The notes under the pieces: generated by a model
Seen by the model: the letters and a program-made list of their open reading frames with translations, nothing else
Databases searched by the model: none
What the model was told of the DNA's origin: nothing
Shown: positions 28,084 through 64,000 of the stretch, one piece after another
Layout: each line of letters begins with the position of its first letter
How positions within the stretch are numbered: position 1 is the stretch's first letter
DNA from: a virus
Taxonomy: Duplodnaviria; Heunggongvirae; Uroviricota; Caudoviricetes
Strand: one strand, 5' to 3'
IMG/VR virus record: IMGVR_UViG_3300010882_000011
Coordinates: 1 to 64,000 of that record
DNA: 64,000 bases
Made by a program: the position numbers and the translations under genes

Positions 28084-28142
28084 TTGTTGTCATTTGACAG
28101 GCAGTCACGTTTCTGCCGTTAGGTTATGCGCAAATTGATAAA

Positions 28143-28176
28143 ACTAAGACTGCGCTTGCGCATTTGACGCAGTCTT
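28143..28176. promoter_or_regulatory. perfect 11-bp inverted repeat (CTAAGACTGCG-N12-CGCAGTCTTAG) in divergent intergenic region
   Basis: Sits in a locally GC-richer non-coding region between divergently transcribed blocks; operator- or hairpin-like. Confidence 0.4.
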
Positions 28177-28404
28177 AGCATAAAGATGAGCCGAGAAGAT
28201 CGAGCAGAGATCGGCATAGGGATCTGCAAGGTGGATTACGCGTCAGCCCGCGAATGGATTGTTTTGAATTTTTCCATCGAAAATATGACGATTTGTCTTA
28301 GTTTTCCAAGCGATTTTCCAAACGCACCCACCAGGGGGCGTTTTCTATAGTGTACCCTCCTCCTCTCATAATATTCTCAAAATTTTGTTTTCCCCGAAAT
28401 TTTC

Positions 28405-28449
28405 ATTATTTTTGCAAATCCTAGTATAAATAAAATTAAACACATATAA
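28405..28449 (+). promoter_or_regulatory. putative Bacteroidetes-type promoter (TAnnTTTG -7-like motif TATTTTTG)
   Basis: tcattaTTTTTGcaaatcctagtataaataaa immediately upstream of the first recoded plus-strand gene; no Shine-Dalgarno. Confidence 0.35.
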
Positions 28450-29364
28450 ATGAAACTAATCTACTTCATCCGCCATTTTCGTAGTTTCCTTAAAACCAAC
28501 TACAGCGGAAAAGAATTTAAAACCTTACGTTCCAACATATGATCAACATTTTGGAAACTAATGCTACATGGCCCAGCTGCGTGAATACAAGGCATATTCT
28601 GCTGGCCTATAGCTATGCTATTTAGAAAGAGAATAGAGAAAAAAGCTATTAATAGCCTCATCAATAATTCAGGACTGTTATCAGCTCCTAAACAAATAGT
28701 AAATGCAGCCTTTGAATTACGTACATTTTACGCAGAATTATTAAGAGAAAGACAAGATTGTTACTGATACATAGAATGGAAGTTTCCGAATAAATTTTCT
28801 CCGCAAGAAAAAGAAGTTATTATAGATTATATAATGGCTTATGATTTCGATAGAATGATGTCAGTTATTAAAACTGGATTGGGAAGATTTTATTACTATT
28901 TGTTTTTTCATTTAGATAAGGAATGTTTTGGTGAACCAATTGTACCTAAATGATTCAAACCTCATCTTGAGAAATGGTATTGGCTTAGAATATGGTTATT
29001 CTTTCCTATACGTAATCCTTTAGATATGAAATTCTATATAGATACTAAATTTCTCAGAACAACTAACCTCTTTGAAAAAGAAATAATTGTAGGAACATAC
29101 AATACAACAGGTAGAGTTGAAATTGATGGAATAGGAATACAAGAATTAGGAGAACAATTTTATTATACCTCTGATTTTAAATATTTTACTTATAGATATA
29201 CTACTCCTCATGATAAAGTAAAAAAGGATGGCCAATGAGGAAGAATGTTTGGCTTTGGACATGGAGTACAACCAGACTTGTATCAAAGTAGAGGAGCATT
29301 AGGAATAGCTTCCAGAGGAATTTATCACGAACCAATGTATTATGACAGGACAAGCAATATATAA
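28450..29364 (+). CDS. Trp-rich hypothetical protein (304 aa) with 6 in-frame TGA read as Trp
   Basis: Single frame open from ATG 28450 to TAA ~29362 if TGA is sense. The TGA codons give ...SNIWSTFWKLM..., CYWYIEWKF, VPKWFKPHLEKWYWLRIW. Track ORF 29026..29238 is a fragment of this gene. Confidence 0.5.
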
Positions 29365-32300
29365 ACCATTTTTTTATCAAGGGGCTGAAGAGGAAGAACC
29401 AGTTAATCTGTTTCCAGAACAAGCGATACAATTAAGACAACAGACTGCACCAATAGTAGCAGGCTATCAACCTTCATTTAATTGAGGAGAAGATGTAGAT
29501 GAACCTACTAAACCAGGAATTGTTCAACACAAAGGAAACCTAAATCTTGGTAATTTAGAAGGCTTTGTACAAGAATTACAACAAGCTGGATTAAGTTTTA
29601 GAATAACCTCAGCAACAAGGGAGGGGACTAAAACTAAACAAGGTCGTACTTCCCATCATGCAGGCGGTAATGCTATAGATATTACTCCTATTCAAGGTTC
29701 TTCATACGAGGAGTTGCAATCACAAATTGCTTCCTCTCCTAAAATTCAGGGTATTTTTAGAAAATATGGAATGGGAATTTTAGATGAAACCAGTAAAGAA
29801 ATGTTAGAGAGGACTGGAGGAACTGCACCACATTGACATGTAGGACCAGATAGTAGTGCAACAGCTAATTTTAAGAAATGATTTGGTAGAGAAGGAGGAA
29901 AGATTCCTATGTATCAGGATGGTGGAGGTTACATATGAAACTCTGGTACTTCAGTTGTTCCCAAGATTACATCCGATTATACTTATAGAACAACTGCTCC
30001 TGTTCAACATAAAAGAGTAATTGTGCCAATTCAGGAAGAAACCTTAGTTACTGAGGAACCATATCAACATGCAGAAATACGTGCTGCTGATCCAAACAGG
30101 CCAATACGTCCAAATGTACCACAAAGCAAATTTAGAGAGTGAGCTGCAGATACATCCAGAGGATTACAATCTTATGTATCCTCTCTTGGGGCAACTTTTG
30201 TTGGAGATGTAATTAATACCCTACCTCTCGCAAAAGATGCTGCCGAATTATGAAGGAATACAACAGGTATTACCATATTCCCGCAAAGTAAACATGATGT
30301 ACAACGATGAAAAGAAGCAGACAGACGAAATCCAGGTAGTGGAAACTTTTCTGCTTTAAAGGAAGGAGTAGAAAATAATATAGTCGGTGCAGCTGCTGGT
30401 TATGGATTATCTAAAGCAATTCCTTGAATTGCCCAGTTACCAAAAGCATTGACTAATATAAAGGTGGGAAATTATACTATATTTCCAAAAGCAAATCCAA
30501 AAGCACATTATAGAAATATTGGTAATACTTCACAAGGATATAACAATGCACTTAAGTTAGAAGAAATTATACCTCCTATTATTGACAAAGAAGCTTATCT
30601 TTTATCTAAAGGAGCTATTCGTGATGAAGCAGGAAAGATAGTAGCTAGAGATGCTAATGGAAACTTTATTTTGACACCAAAACAATTTAACAAGGCATAC
30701 TATGAACGACAAGGTAAATTTGTGGACCCTAGACGATATAAAGGTAAATATTTTGTTGAAGTTGAAGGAGTTCCGATGGAATCTGGGTATGGCGGTAATT
30801 ACGGATATCTTCCAACTAGAGAAGGCCAATTTGCGGGGAATGTAAGTACCAGAAATCCTGGCGTAAGCTTTCATAAGCGTATTTTAAATTTTGGAAACAC
30901 GGAATTAATTCACAAATCTTTACCAAAACCTAAATATAAAATTATAGAAACAGAGCCTGGAGTGTTCTCGATGTCAAATAAGAATCTCAACAATTATGCT
31001 AATAAAATGAAAGCAAAATTAGAAGGAATGACATCAGATCAAAAATTTGCTGCAGCATTTACAGGATTAAAAGGTTCCAATAGATTAGTTAGTAATTCTT
31101 TTATTGATAACCTCAATCAATTTAACGGTGGAGGGTTTCGTTACATATATAACCTTGATAAAAACTGAGTATTAAAAGATCCTCATAGAACTCCAATACT
31201 TGGAAGTGAGAAAGCTTTGTTTTCCCAAGAACACAAACGCTCATTTTTGCCTGAATACCAAATTGGGGTAAATTCCAAAAGGCGTCCAGTTACCATACAA
31301 AGGAAACTAGATAATCAGCCTTATGTTGATAAAGATGGGATGCGAGTTATACATAATAACTTAAAGCGAGATGGGCTTCAAGTATATAGTGGTGGAGAAG
31401 AAGCGGTAGAAAACCTTATTAACAATAGCCACAGATTGCCAGACTATATAAAAGGAAAATATGATTTTGGTGATTTACGTAGTGTAAATCTTGGCATGTA
31501 TAAAAAGAAACCTTATATTATAGATTTCGAAATGACTAATCCTAAAAAACCTGTATTTTGATCCTTTCAAAAAGGTGGCAAACTCCGCAATCCCAATAAA
31601 GACTCCCTAATCAATCCAGAAATCAAACCCAACTTTGTTACTCGTCTTGAAGATCCTAATAGACAATTCCTAACAGGAACGGACAAAAAAGGAAGACCTA
31701 CTAAAATGACTCATCTAATGAGCTGAGGAGAGAACAATGGGCAAACTATTATCTATCCTGAAATACAGGAGATTAATGGTCAACTTCAACAGTTGGAAGG
31801 AATGGAAGCCTTTGATTCTGCTCTTCATAATAATGATTTTCTAGTTGCAAAGTCTCCAAGATATGCCAAATGATATAGTAGAAAGTATAAGAACTTTTAT
31901 CCTAAGTTTGCAGTTGGAGGAGCTATCTATACTACACCAACTAGTCCTAGTCAAGAGGAACAATTACCTGTTGTACAAGGAAAACCAATAGGATATCAAC
32001 CACAATATTTTAATACAACTCAAGAAGAGGAAACACCTCAAGTAACAGAAAATATAGAAGAAATGGAAAATAAAGAATCTCCGCTTTATAAACATAAGTT
32101 TGGAGAAACAAAAAATAAAGTAAAGGAATTTGCTGACGTAATGTACCCAATATTTAGTGAAGTATTAGGTGAGATGGGATTACCACAGGAACTTGCTAAG
32201 AATTTAACTAAGCAAGCTGCTCTTGAATCTGGATATGGGTTATCTCCAAGAGGAGCACAGGGATTCAATTTAGGTGGCATTAAATATTTTGGTGATAAAG

Positions 32301-32578
32301 ATTATCAGGGAACAAAACATAGCGATGGAAATGAATATACCGACTTTAATAATCTTCGAGATTATGCACAGTATGTAGTAAAACTATTAGCAAATAAATA
32401 TGGTATTACAGAATCTATGTCTGATAAGGAATTTGTAGATAGATTACATGGTAAAAATCCAAGTGGTGCAAACTATAGTGCAAGTTATGGAAAGTATCAA
32501 CAAACATTTGGTAATATGAAATCATTAGATAGATCAATTAATGAAATAATTAATAGCCAATTATTGGCACAAAGTTAA
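29342..32578 (+). CDS. giant peptidoglycan hydrolase (1078 aa): N-terminal M15 D,D/L,D-peptidase domain + C-terminal glucosaminidase domain; ~12 in-frame TGA read as Trp
   Basis: Track ORFs 30449..31168, 31217..31561 and 32063..32578 are all in frame 2, separated by TGA. The N-terminus has TSHHAGGNAIDI and APH(W)HVGPD, where a TGA falls on the conserved Trp of the VanY/M15 EPWH motif. The C-terminus has AQAALESGYG...FNLGGIKY, the glucosaminidase signature; TAA stop. Confidence 0.6.
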
Positions 32579-32579
32579 C

Positions 32580-32759
32580 ATGACTAACAAACAAAAATGA
32601 ATTGCAACAGCAATTATTATTCTCGCAATAATCGGAGTAATATGCGCTATAAAATTCCTTCCAGTATGAGCCGTAATAATGGCTATATGTACAACACTCT
32701 TCGGAGGTTTCTGTGGGTGGAATTTAAAGGGAAAAAGATTATCAAGTTTATTGGAATAA
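32580..32759 (+). CDS. small two-TM membrane protein (holin-like), 2 in-frame TGA
   Basis: MTNKQKWIATAIIILAIIGVICAIKFLPVWAVIMAICTTLFGGFCGWNLKGKRLSSLLE; immediately downstream of the hydrolase gene. Confidence 0.4.
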
Positions 32760-32764
32760 AACAA

Positions 32765-32800
32765 AAAAGGCGAGCCGTAATTGACTCGCCTTTTTCTTTT
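32765..32800 (+). terminator. rho-independent terminator (possibly bidirectional)
   Basis: ggcgag-N10-ctcgcc hairpin followed by TTTTTCTTTT, between convergent gene blocks. Confidence 0.5.
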
Positions 32801-32801
32801 G

Positions 32802-33524
32802 CTATCTTTCTTTTCAGATAGCGTATAATGTAAGATTATTATTAATATTGATTACATCTCCTGGAGCATATGTGGCCCCTAATCCATCAGGCTCAGTGTT
32901 TCAGCTAACTAGCTTTCACCAACCACGAATAATTGAGATATCATATCTTATTTTATATGTACTTCCTTTCATTGCTTGTTCTACTAATGAACCTCGGCCT
33001 CCATTGGCATCATAAGTTATAGTAGCAAGATTATTTTTATCCCCGACATTTACTCCCACCCAATAAGCATGTGAAAATGGCTTATGAATTGTGAAATTGA
33101 ATTCCAATTCTTCATCCCCAGTGAAATAGTTAGCCAAGTTCTGAACAGTTGAAAGATCTTGCCAATTCTCGGCAGTATCTAACTTGAATATATCATACTG
33201 GAATGCTCTAGTCCCATTTGTATGAACACTGAAACTTCAATCCCTTGTAGTTTTAAAGTTAACTGTTACTGTTTTCCCAATACCTAATTTATGAAGATTC
33301 AACAAAAAGAAATTAGTTCAAAGCTTAATATCATTTCATTGATACTTTTCATTGAAAATTGAAATTGTTTGTCTATCTCCAATCGGAACTTTTAAAACTT
33401 TTTCCGCATCAAGTGGTAGAGGGGCTGTATTTTCTGAGGCCTGAGTACTCATGTGGTTGTCAATTGCACCAGAGGATAATTCTGTAAATAATGAAGTATT
33501 TAAAACTGTTTGATTGTTTATCAT
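32802..33524 (-). CDS. hypothetical Trp-rich protein (~240 aa), ~6 in-frame TGA
   Basis: Track ORFs 33336..33524 and 32916..33137 join in one minus-strand frame via TGA, giving ...EKYQWNDIKLWTNFF...IIRGWWKLVSW...; TAG stop. Confidence 0.45.
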
Positions 33525-33919
33525 TATTTTAGTTCAATGTGCGGGTTATCTTTAAAATTCTTTCAATACATGCCAGCATCTATAGGAATTCCAATTTCTT
33601 GTGATGTTTTCAATATTCAGTCTATACACTCTTTCAATTGTTTAACATCGAAGTTCACCTTACCACCAGGACTGGCGTATAAGTCAACAGCTAATCCATC
33701 TTGATGTTTACTACGTTTTGTAACTCCATCCATTTGACTAACAATGGCCCCAGGAGCGGTACGTCCTTTAGCATATATTGCTTTCTGTTGTTCAAGTGTA
33801 CGGAATCCATCAGTAACTGTGAATTCTACTGGGCATTCTTTTATTGCTTCCTCAAGCAGTTGGATCATTTTTTCATTTACTCCAACTAAATTTTTACGGG
33901 TTCTTTGATTTAATTCCAT
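33524..33919 (-). CDS. endolysin, peptidase M15 (T5 Lys-like L-alanyl-D-glutamate peptidase), 2 in-frame TGA
   Basis: DGFRTLEQQ...SKHQDGLAVDLYA plus a TGA-read-through C-terminus ...IDWILKTSQEIGIPIDAGMYWKNFKDNPHIELK. This matches T5 Lys ...GADWN...DGGHVEL, and a TGA sits at the conserved Trp; TAA stop. Confidence 0.7.
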
Positions 33920-34710
33920 TACAGTATTTTTTTAGCATTATATAAAGTTCTAATCTGGGTCTCAGTCAATTCTACATTGTATAACGCAAACTCAGTAATT
34001 ATACTTCCATCTCCAAACGAGCCTCCTCTTTCTCCAAATCTTCAATCACCATTAGCTAGTTCTTGATCGGCAGGATAATCAGGTGGATATGGGGAAGTAT
34101 AAGTAAACCAATTTCCTTGATGAGAAATATAACTTACTCTATCATTAGCCATACTTGTCGAACACGCAATGAATTTCATATTAGAAGTGTTTGATTCATA
34201 TGTTCACGCCGATGGTCTTGTTGTTCCTGTACCACCAGTAGTCGTAAACGAGAGTGAGCTGGGATAACTGAACGGTCCTACATTAACACTGAATCCAGTA
34301 GCTGATGTACCACTCTTATTACCAGCTGATGTAAAAGTACCACCATCAGAAGGTCCAGCCTGGTTTGTAAAAACTACAAAAGTATAATCTCCAGTCATGA
34401 AATTAGGTGGAGTACCAAATGGATTATTTAGTGAAGCTAAGGGAGCAGTCATACTATTACCATTACGATTAGTTCCATCACCTCAATTACCAATCATTCT
34501 CCATCCCTTTCCGAATCCTTCTCCTACTTCAACAATATCAGAAACCATTGGTAAATCATATGAGTCAAATTCTCCCATAAACATAGCACCAGTAATTCTA
34601 TCTTGAATTCGTAGTTTATAGCCTTCGCTAACAGGAACCAGAATTGCATCTGCAAAATTTACATGAACAACTGGTCTTGGCAAGGTCAAATTATTAAATC
34701 TTGCTCTCAT
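33919..34710 (-). CDS. LamG-like (concanavalin A-like lectin/glucanase) domain protein, 3 in-frame TGA
   Basis: Track ORFs 34483..34710 and 34204..34452 join via TGA. The C-terminus GDWRFGERGGSFGDGSIITEFALYNVELTETQIRTLY resembles the LamG_3 motif (F.G.IDEVRIYNRALS..EI). Confidence 0.45.
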
Positions 34711-35009
34711 TATTTTTTCCTTTCTTCTTTTGTGTCAGAAACCTCTGACGGTTTTTCATATTCTCTATGTTTCCAAATACTTGTGATTGTATCCAGCCCA
34801 AGTAATGCAGCGGTACAATAGAATAAAGTTTCAATTATTACGGGAGCTGCAAATCCCAGAACTGTACAATAAATACATATAAAGATACACACAAGCCATC
34901 CTAAGATTCCTGCCACACGTTTACTACTAACACCTGTATCGTTCATAAATATATGAACAATAAATTGTTTAAACGATATATCTTTATATCTATCCATTAG
35001 TGTTTTCAT
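34710..35009 (-). CDS. two-TM membrane protein (holin candidate)
   Basis: VAGILGWLVCIFICIYCTVLGF and APVIIETLFYCTAALLGL helices; in a cluster with the M15 endolysin. Confidence 0.45.
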   Translation of the reverse strand: MKTLMDRYKDISFKQFIVHIFMNDTGVSSKRVAGILGWLVCIFICIYCTVLGFAAPVIIETLFYCTAALLGLDTITSIWKHREYEKPSEVSDTKEERKK

Positions 35010-35290
35010 TTGCTGGCATTGCGGGCAAAATTGGCCTGCTTCACAGTACTGGATGGAAAATCTTCTTTATTAGCCAAGACGTGTCTTGCATATTCTTGTA
35101 CACCTTTGCCAGCTCTATTTGCTTTGGCAGTGAACTTACCTTTATTCTCTGGTTTAATGTGAATTCCACTTTCGCCTTTCTTAATTTGACCACCTTTACG
35201 GTACAACCAAATATTTGGAAGATTTATCGTATTTTGGTCAGAATTTCCAGAAAGTTGTCGAATGGAATTTAATAGATCAACATAGTTCAT
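34997..35290 (-). CDS. hypothetical basic protein (~97 aa)
   Basis: Likely starts at the MNYVDLL Met inside track ORF 35006..35452; a TGA near the end reads through to TAA three codons later (...NASKWKH*). Confidence 0.4.
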
Positions 35291-35299
35291 ATTTTTAAA

Positions 35300-35465
35300 A
35301 TATTTATTATAGTTAGTGATAAATTTTTTCGCTTGTTTTGTTTTCTGCAAAAATATAACTAATTTTGCAAGATACAAAATATGAACTGTAAAAACACTTA
35401 ATAATATATTAGAAATGGATAAAATAGAAAACGCTAACAGATTACTGGACACCTTGACTAAGTGA
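35300..35465. promoter_or_regulatory. divergent promoter region with TAnnTTTG-like motifs
   Basis: AT-rich strand-switch region containing ...taattttgcaagatac... and tgcaaaaatataac. Confidence 0.35.
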
Positions 35466-36143
35466 GTGGACTTTGTGAATGCACAAGGAATCTGGAAAAT
35501 CCTAAAAGGGTTCTTTGTTATGATTTTACTTGTCGGGGTGGCTTATTATCTTTCTAATCCGACTAAAATCTTCGAAGTTTACGACAAATTTGAAACTGAC
35601 CAACATAATGCAGTTATTAAACAGAGATTTGAATTAACTAAGAATGTTAATGCTGAGCTTTTGAAGATGAGAGAGGATATGAAGGCCAGTAGGATATTCA
35701 TACAAGAATTCCATAATGGAAAAGAGAACTTAAGTTCAATGCCTTTCTTATATTACTCAATGAAGTTTGAAGTTTTAGATGATAAAACAGAATCAGTTTA
35801 TACTGATTTTCAAGGATTATCTACTAATAGATATAAGTTTATGTCATATCTCTATGAAAACCAATCTTTCGCAGTAGATACAAAAGCCTTTAAAATCATT
35901 GATTCAGAATTATATAATATACTATCTGCACAAGATATACACTATTCTATGTATTCAATGATATATGACCTTAACGGAATTCCGATTGCTTTCATCGGAG
36001 TTCATTGAAATAATGATAACTATAAAGTATTTAGCGAAGGAACATTGAAAAATATATTCAATCGTTATGTACAAAAAATAGTTGGAATGTATAATGTAAC
36101 TAAGTATAAAACATCTAAAAGTAAATCTAGAAAGGACGAATAA
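35466..36143 (+). CDS. membrane-anchored hypothetical protein (225 aa), 1 in-frame TGA
   Basis: Track ORF 35466..36008 extended through TGA to TAA at 36141; N-terminal TM. Confidence 0.45.
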
Positions 36144-37045
36144 TGAAACCTGATAAGGTTAATGGAAATGTAATGTATTATGATGATGAACATGTTTATG
36201 TAGATGCTAAGGATAATTCCAAGTACATATCGGTTACTACATTAATTCATCGCTATACGCACGAGTTTGACTCTGAATTCTGGTCATCCTATAAGGCTTT
36301 AGAGGCCTTAATGTGCGAAGAAGAATTTCAAATTATAAAAAAGACACTGTTGTCCACGAAAAAATTCAATCCAGTTATATTAAATAAGTTGGGAATTGAC
36401 AAAGAAGTCTTTAATGATAAAAAAGAAGAAATCCTTGTATCTTACGAGGAAGAAAAAGTAAAATCCTGTGCTCGCGGAACAGCTATTCACAAAGAATTTG
36501 AGGATAAGTATTACGAGTGTAATGAGCACGATTTCGGGAATTATGGTTTAAGTGGGAATTTCACATGTAAAAGAGATTACTATGAACTAGATTTAGATAA
36601 GGGGGTTTACCCAGAGTATTTGATTTCAAAATCATCAGAAGATAATATTTTAAAGGTCGCAGGACAGATAGATTTATTAATTAAGGATGGTAAAGATTTA
36701 TATATATGAGATTATAAATCCAATAAAGAAATAAAACAGAAGTCATACTACAATAGAAATAAAAGGTCATATGAGTGTATGAAATTCCCACTCAACCATA
36801 TAATGGATTGTAACTATATGCACTATGCACTGCAGTTGTCTCTGTATGCATACTTACTACAACAAATCAATCCAGAATTTGAAATAAAACAATTAAAATT
36901 AATCCATATAGATCACAGTAACAAAAGAACTGATTACGAATTAGAGTATCTGAAAGCTGATGTGCAGAAAATGTTGCAGCACTATAAGAAGCAGCTTAAG
37001 ATAGAAATTGAGCTTAATAAGGATAAACATGTCGTGCATATCTAG
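36143..37045 (+). CDS. PD-(D/E)XK nuclease (lambda Exo/YqaJ-type recombination exonuclease), 1 in-frame TGA
   Basis: Track ORFs 36143..36709 and 36779..37045 share a frame. The motif ...GQIDLLIKDGKDLYI(W)DYKSNK has D...(D/E)xK spacing; TAG stop. Confidence 0.5.
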
Positions 37046-37292
37046 TACTTTAAAATCATGGCAAGAAAATCAGGACAATGATTTAGCCGAAATAAGATTA
37101 CAAATTTGTAATGATTGTCCACTATGTGTTCAGAAAGACGAAAATGGGCCATATTGTGATTCTAGAAGATTTATAAATCATAAAAATGAGGTAGCCACAA
37201 GATGACTACCAGGATTCAAAAGAGGATGTGGATGTTACTTAAAATATAAAGTTCCACATCAACATAATAAGTGTGTGATAGGAAAGTGATAA
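37029..37292 (+). CDS. Cys-rich zinc-ribbon protein, 2 TGA
   Basis: ...ICNDCPLCVQKDENGPYC...RWLPGFKRGCGCYLKYK...; a TGA immediately precedes the TAA stop. Confidence 0.4.
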
Positions 37293-37293
37293 T

Positions 37294-37515
37294 ATGTTAT
37301 GGCTGATTAAGAAAATAAGAAATATAATCATTGGCACCTGGTACAATGTATTCAGGATGAATAACGAAATAGCAATGAAAAGATTAGTAACATGCTATGG
37401 TTGTGAGTATTGTGTGAGACTTACAAATGGCATAAATATATGTAAACAATGTGGTTGCGTTCTTGAATCAAAAGCAAGAGTGAACAGTGAAAAATGTAAA
37501 ATGAAATTATGATAA
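37294..37515 (+). CDS. Cys-rich zinc-ribbon protein (paralog of preceding)
   Basis: TCYGCEYCVRL...CKQCGCVLESKARV; a TGA directly precedes the TAA stop. Confidence 0.4.
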
Positions 37516-37835
37516 TGAACGAATTAATACCCTGTAATACTGGGGTAATCTTAAAATTTTACGAAGAAAATCCGTACGCTAGAGTTCAAACTTCTGGCGG
37601 AATACTAATAGGAGATGAAGGAAACAGAAGACAATTAAGCAATTCAACAGGTGAAATGGAAGAAGATATACAGATGGTAGCTTGCGCTAAAGTAATTGCT
37701 GTAGGACCAAAGTGTGAAAATGTAAAAGTTGGGGAGGATGTATTTTGTTATAAAGGTATAGCTCAACCAATCCCATTTTTCAAGCAAGGGTACTACAACA
37801 TAAGTGAGCAAAACATTATGTGTAGAGTAATTTAA
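37509..37835 (+). CDS. GroES/gp31-like co-chaperonin
   Basis: ...GGILIGDEG...AKVIAVGPKCENVKVGEDVFCYKG...IMCRVI follows the GroES pattern (GGIVL...KVLAVGPG...VKVGDKV...ILAIVE). Confidence 0.5.
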   Translation: MIMNELIPCNTGVILKFYEENPYARVQTSGGILIGDEGNRRQLSNSTGEMEEDIQMVACAKVIAVGPKCENVKVGEDVFCYKGIAQPIPFFKQGYYNISEQNIMCRVI

Positions 37836-37910
37836 ATTTAATTTATGGTCAGTACTGAATGATACACTTCATTTAGAAGTGAATTCAATAAGGGAAGAAA
37901 ACGATTAAAA

Positions 37911-38144
37911 ATGATGATAAATAATGATAAAATATTCTTTAACCCTGGAGATAAGGTTAAAGTAAAACACGAACTGGATTTTTGTCCAGTTATGTATGTA
38001 GTAGAAAAGGTAACGCGTTCTTATGTTAATAAAGACACGAACTCAAAAGAAAATACGTTTATAGGAATTAAATGCAGGTGGTATGATTCCAATTTTGCAT
38101 TACAGGAAGCTATTTTTTCAACTAAGGATTTAACACAAGCATAA
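37911..38144 (+). CDS. hypothetical protein
   Basis: Track ORF of 77 aa; TAA stop. Confidence 0.4.
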   Translation: MMINNDKIFFNPGDKVKVKHELDFCPVMYVVEKVTRSYVNKDTNSKENTFIGIKCRWYDSNFALQEAIFSTKDLTQA

Positions 38145-38431
38145 TGAGACTATATTTAAACACTCCGAAAATCCATTGCATAGAAGTAAATAATGTAGAT
38201 GAAATGGTAGAATTGGTTAAGAAGTTAAGAGGAGAACAAGAGGAGTTTAAAACAAATCTTCCTATTAATATACCCGCTTACCCTATAGGATATCCAAATT
38301 ATCCTTATAAAGCAATATGGCAGGTCATACCAGAAATGTTGCCAACTTATACGACATGTTCTACTGGAACTACAAATGTAGGTAAAAGTAACTGTTGTTG
38401 CACAAAAGACGAATTTAATACAAATATATAA
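38144..38431 (+). CDS. hypothetical protein
   Basis: Track ORF of 95 aa; TAA stop. Confidence 0.4.
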   Translation: MRLYLNTPKIHCIEVNNVDEMVELVKKLRGEQEEFKTNLPINIPAYPIGYPNYPYKAIWQVIPEMLPTYTTCSTGTTNVGKSNCCCTKDEFNTNI

Positions 38432-38437
38432 TAAATC

Positions 38438-63664: not shown

Positions 63665-64000
63665 ATGGCAGCTACTACAGCATGGGATGGGCAAAACGCT
63701 CTATTAGAAGATCCAATTGATAATGATTATCAAATAGACAACAGGCCACAAATCACGGATATAACTGGAATCTTAGATGAGCCAGTTGATGATACTCCGC
63801 ATGAGCCTCAAGATGAGGATGTAATGCACTTGTTCTTGAAGGAGCGTGGTATTAAAGATCCGTCCAAAATAACGTTTGAAAACGATGAAGGTGAAACCGA
63901 AGATGTTGACTTTAACTCACTTTCACGTGAAGAACAGTTGACAATTTTACAAGAAATAACTAGTCCAGGTCTTACTGATCATGAGACAGATGTTATTAAT
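63665..64000 (+). CDS. acidic hypothetical protein (partial, continues past window end)
   Basis: MAATTAWDGQNALLEDPIDNDYQIDNRPQITDITGILDEPVDD... in an open frame to the window end. Confidence 0.45.
   Translation, partial: MAATTAWDGQNALLEDPIDNDYQIDNRPQITDITGILDEPVDDTPHEPQDEDVMHLFLKERGIKDPSKITFENDEGETEDVDFNSLSREEQLTILQEITSPGLTDHETDVIN

Follow-up and report, generated by a model that had tools for sequence, protein, structure and literature searches.

A TGA-recoded, multi-module predicted peptidoglycan hydrolase with a conserved membrane partner in a crAss-related phage: a probable virion-associated enzyme

Why should a phage that already encodes a small and complete endolysin also carry a predicted peptidoglycan hydrolase of 1078 amino acids (aa)? 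The question is raised by a virus of the class Caudoviricetes (IMG/VR record IMGVR_UViG_3300010882_000011), positions 1 to 64,000 of which were analysed and are referred to here as the window. The hydrolase gene (29342..32578, plus strand) is part of the late half of the window, which is recoded, with TerL 7 kb further downstream and the endolysin operon facing it tail-to-tail; a gene for a 59-aa protein with two putative transmembrane (TM) spans follows. From the evidence below, we consider that the hydrolase is probably a virion-associated, wall-penetrating enzyme. The contig that contains the window measures ~170 kb in public assemblies, and copies of it in other samples are 100% identical over 20.5 kb; a megablast search with 20 kb against phage genomes gave no match. 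TerL and portal are distant relatives of the crAss-like proteins (~22% identity and E=6e-33 for TerL), and the host is probably a member of the Bacteroidota.

The gene is open for 1078 codons only when TGA is read as sense, and it contains 12 in-frame TGA codons, no TGG and a TAA stop. A preliminary description of this DNA had proposed a single gene with two muralytic domains and about 12 TGA codons; the coordinates, the motifs that it quoted and this TGA count all agree with the sequence. That TGA encodes tryptophan (Trp) in this phage is seen independently in the neighbouring endolysin, where a TGA codon, masked as X, falls opposite the Trp residue of GGDW/GGEW in four M15C enzymes of solved structure. 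Not one of the window's 56 genes terminates in TGA. Two TGA positions of the hydrolase, 362 and 795, stand opposite Tyr in the standard-code homologs P0011 and cr108_1 when the sequences are read by eye.

The use of TGA divides the window. In the left part (1..~28080), which consists of minus-strand, early genes, the ratio of in-frame TGA to TGG is 1:77 over 5876 codons, and in the mostly plus-strand right part (28450..64000) it is 90:81 across 28 late genes. The Trp codons of the hydrolase are exclusively TGA (12:0), compared to 78:81 in the remaining late genes (Fisher p=3.9e-4). It had also been described as the most heavily recoded gene, which holds for the count of TGA (12, with 10 in the runner-up) and fails for density (1.1%, against a maximum of 3.4%). 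In recoded phages, early genes keep the standard code, whereas recoding preferentially affects structural and lysis genes expressed late (bioRxiv 10.1101/2021.08.26.457843), and both the split layout and the exclusive use of TGA by the hydrolase fit this published late-code-switch pattern. A search of the window for a TGA suppressor tRNA found none among its tRNAs (tRNA-Met, two tRNA-Glu and tRNA-Pro), nor was one found in the divergent intergenic region with relaxed ARAGORN settings or Rfam in E-value mode; the code-switch genes must therefore lie in the other ~106 kb of the genome. Public gene callers fragment the hydrolase gene; standard gene calling breaks up genes of this kind, which are therefore not seen in protein databases. 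Whole-protein searches gave no match in a word-indexed search (E<=0.001), an IMG/VR peptide scan, phmmer against the PDB or NCBIfam.

The domains were approached through their relatives and through family profiles. The C-terminal domain (aa 916-1068; 32087..32545, plus strand) gives 23.6 bits (E=9e-5) against Pfam Glucosaminidase (PF01832) when searched alone, which falls below the curated cut-off of 30.2 bits. Its relatives place it more firmly: it shares 48% and 36% identity with the two GH73 domains present in a recoded ORF (open reading frame) of 677 aa in L003 (88.8 bits in Pfam) and 45% with P0002 from a crAss-like contig, and the corresponding domain of the hydrolase of a 161-kb relative (L013) reaches 63.6 bits. 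A profile of four sequences matches only GH73 structures, namely FlgJ 5dn5 (E=7.7e-7), Auto 3fi7 (1e-5) and FlgJ 2zyc/3vwo. The motifs AALESGYG (aa 959-966) and FNLGGIKY (aa 975-982) are present, and E962, within QAALESGYG, aligns with the QAALESGWG of FlgJ and is invariant in our alignment, as befits a catalytic-type Glu. With the FlgJ, Auto and AtlA family the domain thus shares the profile match, the ALESG catalytic-Glu motif and the GGIK motif; it differs in being divergent, with GANYSAS in place of the usual YATDPxY and a sub-cut-off score on its own. Because homologs and the family profile match solved FlgJ and Auto structures, the assignment of a FlgJ-type GH73 N-acetylglucosaminidase domain is regarded as confirmed by homology.

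The N-terminal domain (aa 59-188; 29516..29905, plus strand) is more divergent. It contains, in order, RITSATR (aa 87-93), an S-x-H-x2-G-x-A-x-D motif with H106 and D113 (SHHAGGNAID, aa 104-113) and PHWHVGPD (aa 163-170), in which the W between H164 and H166 is encoded by TGA. By itself the hydrolase scores below the curated cut-offs for M15_4 (13.9 bits, E=0.085; cut-off 25 bits) and M15_3 (12.2 bits, E=0.2; cut-off 23.2 bits). The Pfam check proposed in the preliminary description, applied to the table-4 translation, thus gives sub-cut-off values for both catalytic domains, and homologs and profiles were needed. The sole database relative of the M15-like domain is P0004, a 499-aa protein of a recoded contig (42% identity, E about 1e-31), which combines the domain with an SLT transglycosylase and conserves RITSxxR, S-x-H-x2-G-x-A-x-D and H-W-H-V-G-P-D. 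P0004 also gives sub-threshold Pfam matches to M15_4 (6e-4, 20.7 bits), M15_3 (4e-3, 17.6 bits) and VanY (6e-3, 16.8 bits). When the domain was compared with an M15C alignment by hhalign, the first two motifs were placed on their M15C counterparts (P=0.0046); a profile of the domain gave no significant match against PDB sequences. The AF2 model of P0004 has a pLDDT (predicted local distance difference test) of 36.5 overall and of 56-76 within the M15-like domain, and nearly all of its top 50 Foldseek matches in the PDB possess the LAS fold (best LdcB, E=0.02 and probability 0.94; VanYB, probability 0.97), including LdcB, VanY, VanXY, ChiX, the T5 and RB49 L-Ala-D-Glu peptidases, MepA and hedgehog N-domains. 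This fold evidence comes from the model of the homolog P0004, as distinct from the domain of the hydrolase itself. Given the ordered motifs kept in P0004, the sub-threshold Pfam matches and the LAS-fold matches, the domain probably adopts an M15/LAS-type zinc peptidase fold, while by the Pfam criterion it is not a member of the family.

The region between the two domains had been described as a linker of ~600 aa. The domains are in fact ~730 aa apart, and the interval holds two conserved modules. The first, identified through HMMER relatives, alignment and pairwise BLAST, comprises a Gly/Ala-rich segment and a module of shared sequence (aa 272-529; 30155..30928, plus strand). An exhaustive HMMER search with a TGA-free piece (aa 363-608) retrieved ten relatives, P0006-P0015, of 158 to 3119 aa; the portion common to the hydrolase and these proteins is ~150 aa long, and the Gly/Ala-rich segment extends the homology to aa 272-529. 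The signature of the module, PKANPxAHYRNIGGxxGY ... YxGxYFVE, ends in YxGxYxVE across the family, with Y, R and E invariant and H nearly so, a residue pattern that suggests a catalytic role. Database clusters that contain this module, hereafter HYRNIG, number about 10, and some of their proteins are 880-1227 aa long. Modelling of the HYRNIG fragment with AF2 and a 10-sequence alignment gave a pLDDT of 52.8, and no match in Foldseek searches of the PDB and BFVD or in a profile search of PDB sequences. An ADP-ribosyltransferase-like reading of the HYRNIG...VE signature was dropped, as nothing supported it. The second module (aa 740-856; 31559..31909, plus strand), found by tblastn and BLASTP, is common to the 'morphogenesis protein' of the crAss-like phage cr108_1 (30% identity, E=1.6e-11) and to MT837925, an unannotated faecal phage contig. 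Neither middle module has a match in Pfam, PHROG, NCBIfam, the PDB or fold searches.

Short [FY]xxGG-type motifs punctuate the protein: MYQDGGG in the region of aa 190 (29909..29929), SFQKGG at aa 741 (31562..31579) and KFAVGG at aa 855 (31904..31921), all on the plus strand and all coinciding with borders of homology blocks. Across 17 family proteins the [FYM]xxGG pattern occurs 22 times, compared to 5.9 expected, with 4 of the 22 being the GH73 active-site motif FNLGGIK, and [FY]xxGG stands where P0010 and P0011 have swapped modules. Possible explanations for the motif are a hinge, a recombination junction and a site of cleavage. In the window, [FY/KR]xxGG is concentrated in three proteins: the hydrolase, a 97-aa PHROG 20603 protein (34997..35290, minus strand; YRKGG) and a 147-aa Cys-rich protein (38438..38881, plus strand; FKRGG, YGKGG and LEGG). 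P0012 contains a PHROG 20603 module fused to a HYRNIG module, between two junction motifs.

At its other end, the hydrolase begins with a region of ~50 aa (29342..29491, plus strand) whose motifs, AIYKPFFYQ ... GYQPS, are by eye common to P0004, the L003 ORF and the hydrolase of the 161-kb relative (L013/L014), with a different domain following in each. We infer that this region may serve as a label for addressing or assembly. Similarly, cr108_1, P0002, P0006 and cr109_1 gp90 have in common a short N-terminal module with [FY]ADGG at its end, and cr125_1 gp057 has FEDGG near its start; by BLAST, these labels match only within the cr108_1-P0002 and cr109-cr125 pairs. Constant N-terminal labels in front of changing domains would be expected of an address label and would not be endolysin-like. 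No signal peptide and no TM span were found in the hydrolase (the top 19-residue hydropathy window is 1.18). Directly after P0004, in another recoded phage, lies a 2255-aa repetitive ORF with 58 in-frame TGA codons (L006:10454-17221, plus strand), which is probably a fibre or giant structural protein.

The 59-aa protein (32580..32759, plus strand; 2 TGA) starts one base after the hydrolase stop, having been reported to follow it immediately, and has hydrophobic spans at aa 7-24 and 29-47 and a charged C-terminal tail NLKGKRLSSLLE. It aligns without gaps with 58-60-aa proteins encoded after the hydrolase gene in cr108_1 and in L002, and the ungapped 45-aa alignment to the cr108_1 partner scores 79, compared to 27±5.5 for shuffled sequences (0/2000). 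A hidden Markov model of these two crAss-like partners picks the 59-aa protein alone among the 637 ORFs of the window (E=3.2e-4; next 0.77), and the protein is 46% identical to the L013/L014 partner (E=3e-11). The pair of hydrolase and two-TM genes is thus present in four phages (the window, L013/L014, cr108_1 and L002) with four different hydrolase architectures, the lytic domains being M15 and GH73 in the window, GH73 with a C-terminal domain in L013/L014, a zincin with a phage-tail lysozyme in cr108_1 and GH73 alone in L002. The 59-aa protein is regarded as a conserved functional partner of the hydrolase, and may act as a holin-type membrane permeabiliser, an ejection accessory or an immunity factor. 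The earlier label of holin-like is apt for its shape, that of a small TM protein with a charged C-terminus beside a muralytic enzyme, and for its conserved partnership in four phages; a match to a known holin family was not obtained (PHROG holin/anti-holin, E=0.81; best Pfam match SLATT_1, E=0.0085, below the cut-off). A protein of 141-152 aa that has a hydrophobic N-terminus and an HE(S/V)GH motif (L001:6730-7155, L002:9579-10004 and L013:3169-3627, minus strand) is encoded directly upstream of the hydrolase in cr108_1 and L002; in L013/L014 its gene is instead part of the lysis-type convergent operon. The window lacks a counterpart of this protein, for which no family match was obtained.

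Immediately beyond the pair, a 14-bp GC-rich hairpin between T and A runs (32763..32796) forms a strong, bidirectional terminator between two convergent operons, and an equivalent hairpin follows the two-TM gene in L013. The convergent operon (32802..35290, minus strand) encodes a 240-aa Flg_new protein (Listeria-Bacteroides repeat, 29.8 bits), the endolysin, a 263-aa protein, a 99-aa protein and the 97-aa PHROG 20603 protein. The canonical endolysin is a 131-aa M15C L-Ala-D-Glu peptidase (33524..33919, minus strand; 2 TGA; PHROG 465, E=7e-34), with a 34-bit match to Pfam VanY and PDB matches to 23ri, 8q2g, ChiX and Ply500 at E=2e-18 to 3e-9. The 99-aa protein (34710..35009, minus strand) has a charged tail and a pair of hydrophobic spans, which makes it, from its sequence, another holin-like candidate; it has no family match. 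Its gene and that of the 97-aa protein are conserved at 44% identity in L014 (E=6e-25 for the 99-aa protein against its L013/L014 equivalent). The endolysin and the holin-like gene lie 1-2.5 kb from the hydrolase on the opposite strand. This operon looks like the real lysis cassette. The presence of a complete small M15C endolysin here indicates that the large protein is not the ordinary endolysin of the phage, which bears out the suggestion that the hydrolase is not a simple endolysin.

The 161-kb recoded phage (L013, L014 and L015), found by alignment scans, is a true relative with the same layout as the window: early genes, a divergent gap, a 433-aa hydrolase, a two-TM gene one base further on, a terminator and a convergent operon. 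In its hydrolase the N-terminal motif is followed by GH73 and then by a C-terminal domain; by eye, the C-terminal half resembles SLT, a likeness that Pfam did not confirm at E<0.01. In its convergent operon, a small M15A-type peptidase (M15_3) occupies the endolysin slot and is accompanied by the homolog of the 99-aa protein. In the window, the first gene of the hydrolase operon is a 304-aa, Trp-rich ORF with one hydrophobic span and 5 TGA codons (28450..29364, plus strand), which overlaps the hydrolase start by 23 nucleotides (nt). It is absent from L014, where the hydrolase opens the operon; it has no Pfam or PHROG match and no homology to the gene that precedes the hydrolase-type protein of cr108_1.

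What, then, could be the role of the hydrolase? Its family modules recur elsewhere always in morphogenesis settings. Proteins with the middle module, P0006 and L012, are encoded directly after TerL and portal, and the HExxH-module proteins of cr109_1 and cr125_1 lie between portal and major capsid protein. P0011 (1227 aa) combines a HYRNIG module, a lysozyme and an HExxH module, matches a PHROG 'tail protein' (E=5e-19), and is preceded by a 'virion structural protein' and followed by ORFs of 875, 920 and >4435 aa. The C-terminus of P0011 is 36% identical to gp041 of Cellulophaga phage phi4:1 (E=2e-18), and gp041 in turn matches the cr108_1 protein through its N-terminal lysozyme (E=4e-8); in GenBank, gp041 (739 aa) is labelled 'structural protein, experimental MS/MS proteomics'. 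Because its modules are shared with portal-adjacent and structural-cluster proteins, and because two steps connect it to the mass-spectrometry-verified gp041, the hydrolase is best read, on these indirect grounds, as a virion-associated enzyme, as the preliminary description had suggested. It would be a long, modular, late-expressed protein that is probably incorporated in the virion, either as cargo of the head or tail lumen or as an ejection protein, and its delivery at infection would open the peptidoglycan of the Gram-negative host locally. In this scheme, GH73 would act on the glycan strand and the M15/LAS-type zinc peptidase on peptide stems or cross-links, with the N-terminal label and the two middle modules possibly serving incorporation into the particle or spanning of the envelope. 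Since all 12 of its Trp codons are TGA, the hydrolase would not be made until the phage switches the cell to TGA = Trp, and the code switch would keep a dangerous wall hydrolase silent early in infection.

Several observations weigh against a virion role. The link to gp041 consists of two steps of module sharing, through cr108_1 and P0011, and the hydrolase and gp041 have no module in common. The gene appears to lie outside any tail or head gene block, as the second gene of the first rightward operon, and its counterpart at the same position in L014 codes for a product of just 433 aa. At no point does the M15 assignment rise to a curated threshold, and the fold matches derive from an AF2 model of poor overall quality. 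Finally, a muralytic enzyme that lacks a signal peptide and adjoins a two-TM protein is the classical signature of a holin-endolysin pair, and it is kept in four phages. The most serious rival follows from this last point: the hydrolase would be a second, unusually large endolysin and the 59-aa protein its dedicated holin, the two causing lysis from within at the end of infection beside the small M15C endolysin and its holin-like gene. Lysis cassettes typically retain such a pair while the lytic domains swap, the two genes border on the endolysin operon in both the window and L014, and published surveys show lysis genes to be the most biased to recoded codons. Against these points, a protein of 1078 aa and at least five modules would be unprecedented for an endolysin of a Gram-negative-type host, its non-catalytic modules recur in portal-adjacent and structural-cluster proteins, and it carries a conserved N-terminal label in a phage that already has a complete small endolysin. 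In cr108_1, moreover, an annotated lysis cassette is separate, 17 kb from the hydrolase/two-TM pair, and the 59-aa peptide lacks a holin family match. Adjacency to a holin is also compatible with a virion role: in phi29, the tail hydrolase gp13, the holin gp14 and the endolysin gp15 are encoded consecutively. On balance, the second-endolysin explanation appears unlikely, with a probability that is still appreciable.

A variant of the virion reading treats the hydrolase as a polyprotein or cargo precursor, with [FY]xxGG as the site of a maturation protease, so that the particle would carry the M15, the uncharacterised modules and GH73 as separate pieces. The enrichment of the motif in the family, its position at the homology-block borders of the hydrolase and at the P0010/P0011 exchange points, and its concentration in three proteins of the window are all in keeping with this proposal, as is the use of Gly-Gly cleavage by adenovirus, African swine fever virus and bacteriocin-leader proteases. 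No such protease was identified in the window, part of the motif count is accounted for by the GH73 active site, and a flexible hinge or recombination junction would give the same pattern; we therefore hold processing of this kind to be distinctly doubtful. The preliminary description had also raised a tape-measure-like lysin, for which the length of the protein and the muralytic domains of tape measures such as T5 Pb2 and those of mycobacteriophages offer precedent. This role is rejected as highly improbable, since no tape-measure family matches in Pfam or PHROGs, the hydrolase is not among tail genes, TerL and portal are distantly related to those of crAss-like, short-tailed phages, and the ortholog in the related phage is only 433 aa long. 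Equally rejected, with a probability close to nil, is the view that the locus is a decayed pseudogene or a run of short ORFs in the standard code: public gene callers do yield fragments, but a TGA lies inside the HxH motif, which P0004 keeps as HWH, homology blocks cross TGA positions, and TGA is Trp in the neighbouring endolysin and never a stop in the window.

Virion-associated hydrolases with two lytic domains are well known, as exemplified by phi29 gp13 (a lysozyme-like domain and an M23 peptidase) and Staphylococcus phage HydH5 (CHAP and LYZ2). Like these, the hydrolase joins a predicted glycosidase and a predicted peptidase in what would be one structural-type protein, distinct from the endolysin, and, like gp13, it is encoded beside holin-like and endolysin genes. 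It differs in its pairing of M15/LAS with GH73, in its much greater length, in its two conserved extra modules and in its probably Gram-negative host. A closer comparison is with the cr108_1 protein QOR58947 (574 aa, 'morphogenesis protein'), which shares the aa 740-856 module, a C-terminal glycosidase and the homologous two-TM partner; there the 58-aa two-TM gene comes after a tRNA-Asn gene, and the pair lies upstream of TerL and portal, as in the window. The glycosidase of QOR58947 is, however, Phage_lysozyme2 (PF18013) rather than GH73, an HExxH module replaces M15, the N-terminal label is another one, and the protein is half the size and written in the standard code. Phage phi4:1 gp041 belongs to the same mosaic family, with a phage-tail-lysozyme-type domain, HExxH modules and xxGG junctions; it comprises a lysozyme and two zincin-like modules, lacks an adjacent two-TM gene and uses the standard code. 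The internal virion proteins of the T7 gp16 and phiKMV gp36 type are large, ejected proteins whose lytic domain is needed to cross peptidoglycan. The proposed hydrolase would resemble them as a large ejected protein with a wall-cutting domain; they have no sequence relationship to it, possess a single lytic domain (transglycosylase or lysozyme), and their core or ejectosome role is experimentally known. The SLT domain of P0004 matches PHROG 342, a family that we take to belong with these internal virion proteins.

The rest of the window provides context for the code switch. The divergent intergenic region (28084..28449, 366 nt) separates the early and late blocks and contains several hairpins; by eye it appears richer in GC than the window average (0.30-0.41 per 2-kb bin). 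Its folding is not unusual (z=-0.41), and it has no Rfam or tRNA match. Within it, ~40 nt ahead of the first late ATG, lies a TATTTTTG element, which agrees with what we take to be the Bacteroidota -7 promoter consensus, TAnnTTTG. The long fibre-like genes at 45262..61152 (plus strand) mostly use TGG for Trp (TGA:TGG 2:9, 0:4, 4:9, 7:10 and 6:19), unlike TerL, portal and the hydrolase, in which Trp is mostly or only TGA; the fibre-like genes may be recent imports from standard-code phages. Two proteins of this region (697 and 525 aa) end alike in F(V/L)ITYL, and the 697-aa one has collagen-like G-x-y runs. In the early region, a 555-codon table-4 ORF with 13 TGA codons (8498..10165, plus strand) runs antisense to a 573-aa, TGA-free early gene (8422..10143, minus strand). 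It is almost certainly a shadow ORF made by reading TGA as sense, and is a warning for code-4 gene calling in early regions.

What is new in this locus is the combination of M15/LAS with GH73, the two uncharacterised conserved modules, the junction motif, the two-TM partner and the total reliance on recoded Trp. The gene reveals two conserved modules of as yet unassigned function that standard gene calling hides, and, with all 12 Trp codons as TGA, would cleanly exemplify how a switch of the genetic code can hold back a dangerous enzyme. A broader possibility, which we rate as improbable at present, is that crAss-related phages of Bacteroidota possess an undescribed toolkit of cargo proteins, each put together from a varying combination of enzyme modules (M15, GH73, SLT, phage-tail lysozyme, HExxH zincins and the new PKANPxAHYRNIG...YFVE module). 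These modules would be joined at [FY]xxGG, labelled N-terminally, perhaps cut at Gly-Gly after packaging, and sent into the host envelope in the company of a dedicated membrane partner of 59 aa. If true, such a toolkit would supply the wall-breaching function that is still to be found for crAss-type and N4-type ejection systems, and a new enzyme family besides.

How short-tailed crAss- and N4-type phages cross the peptidoglycan is an open question. A study of the N4 ejection proteins pointed to a needed hydrolytic activity that is not in the known ejection proteins (PMC13434306), and the structural atlas of crAss001 makes no mention of any wall hydrolase (PMC10172136). With no such enzyme described for crAss001 and the activity missing in the N4 study, the hydrolase family is therefore a testable candidate. 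Overall, large modular hydrolases with a conserved membrane partner, encoded at a fixed genomic position in crAss-related phages, provide concrete candidates for the enzymes by which these phages may breach the cell wall.

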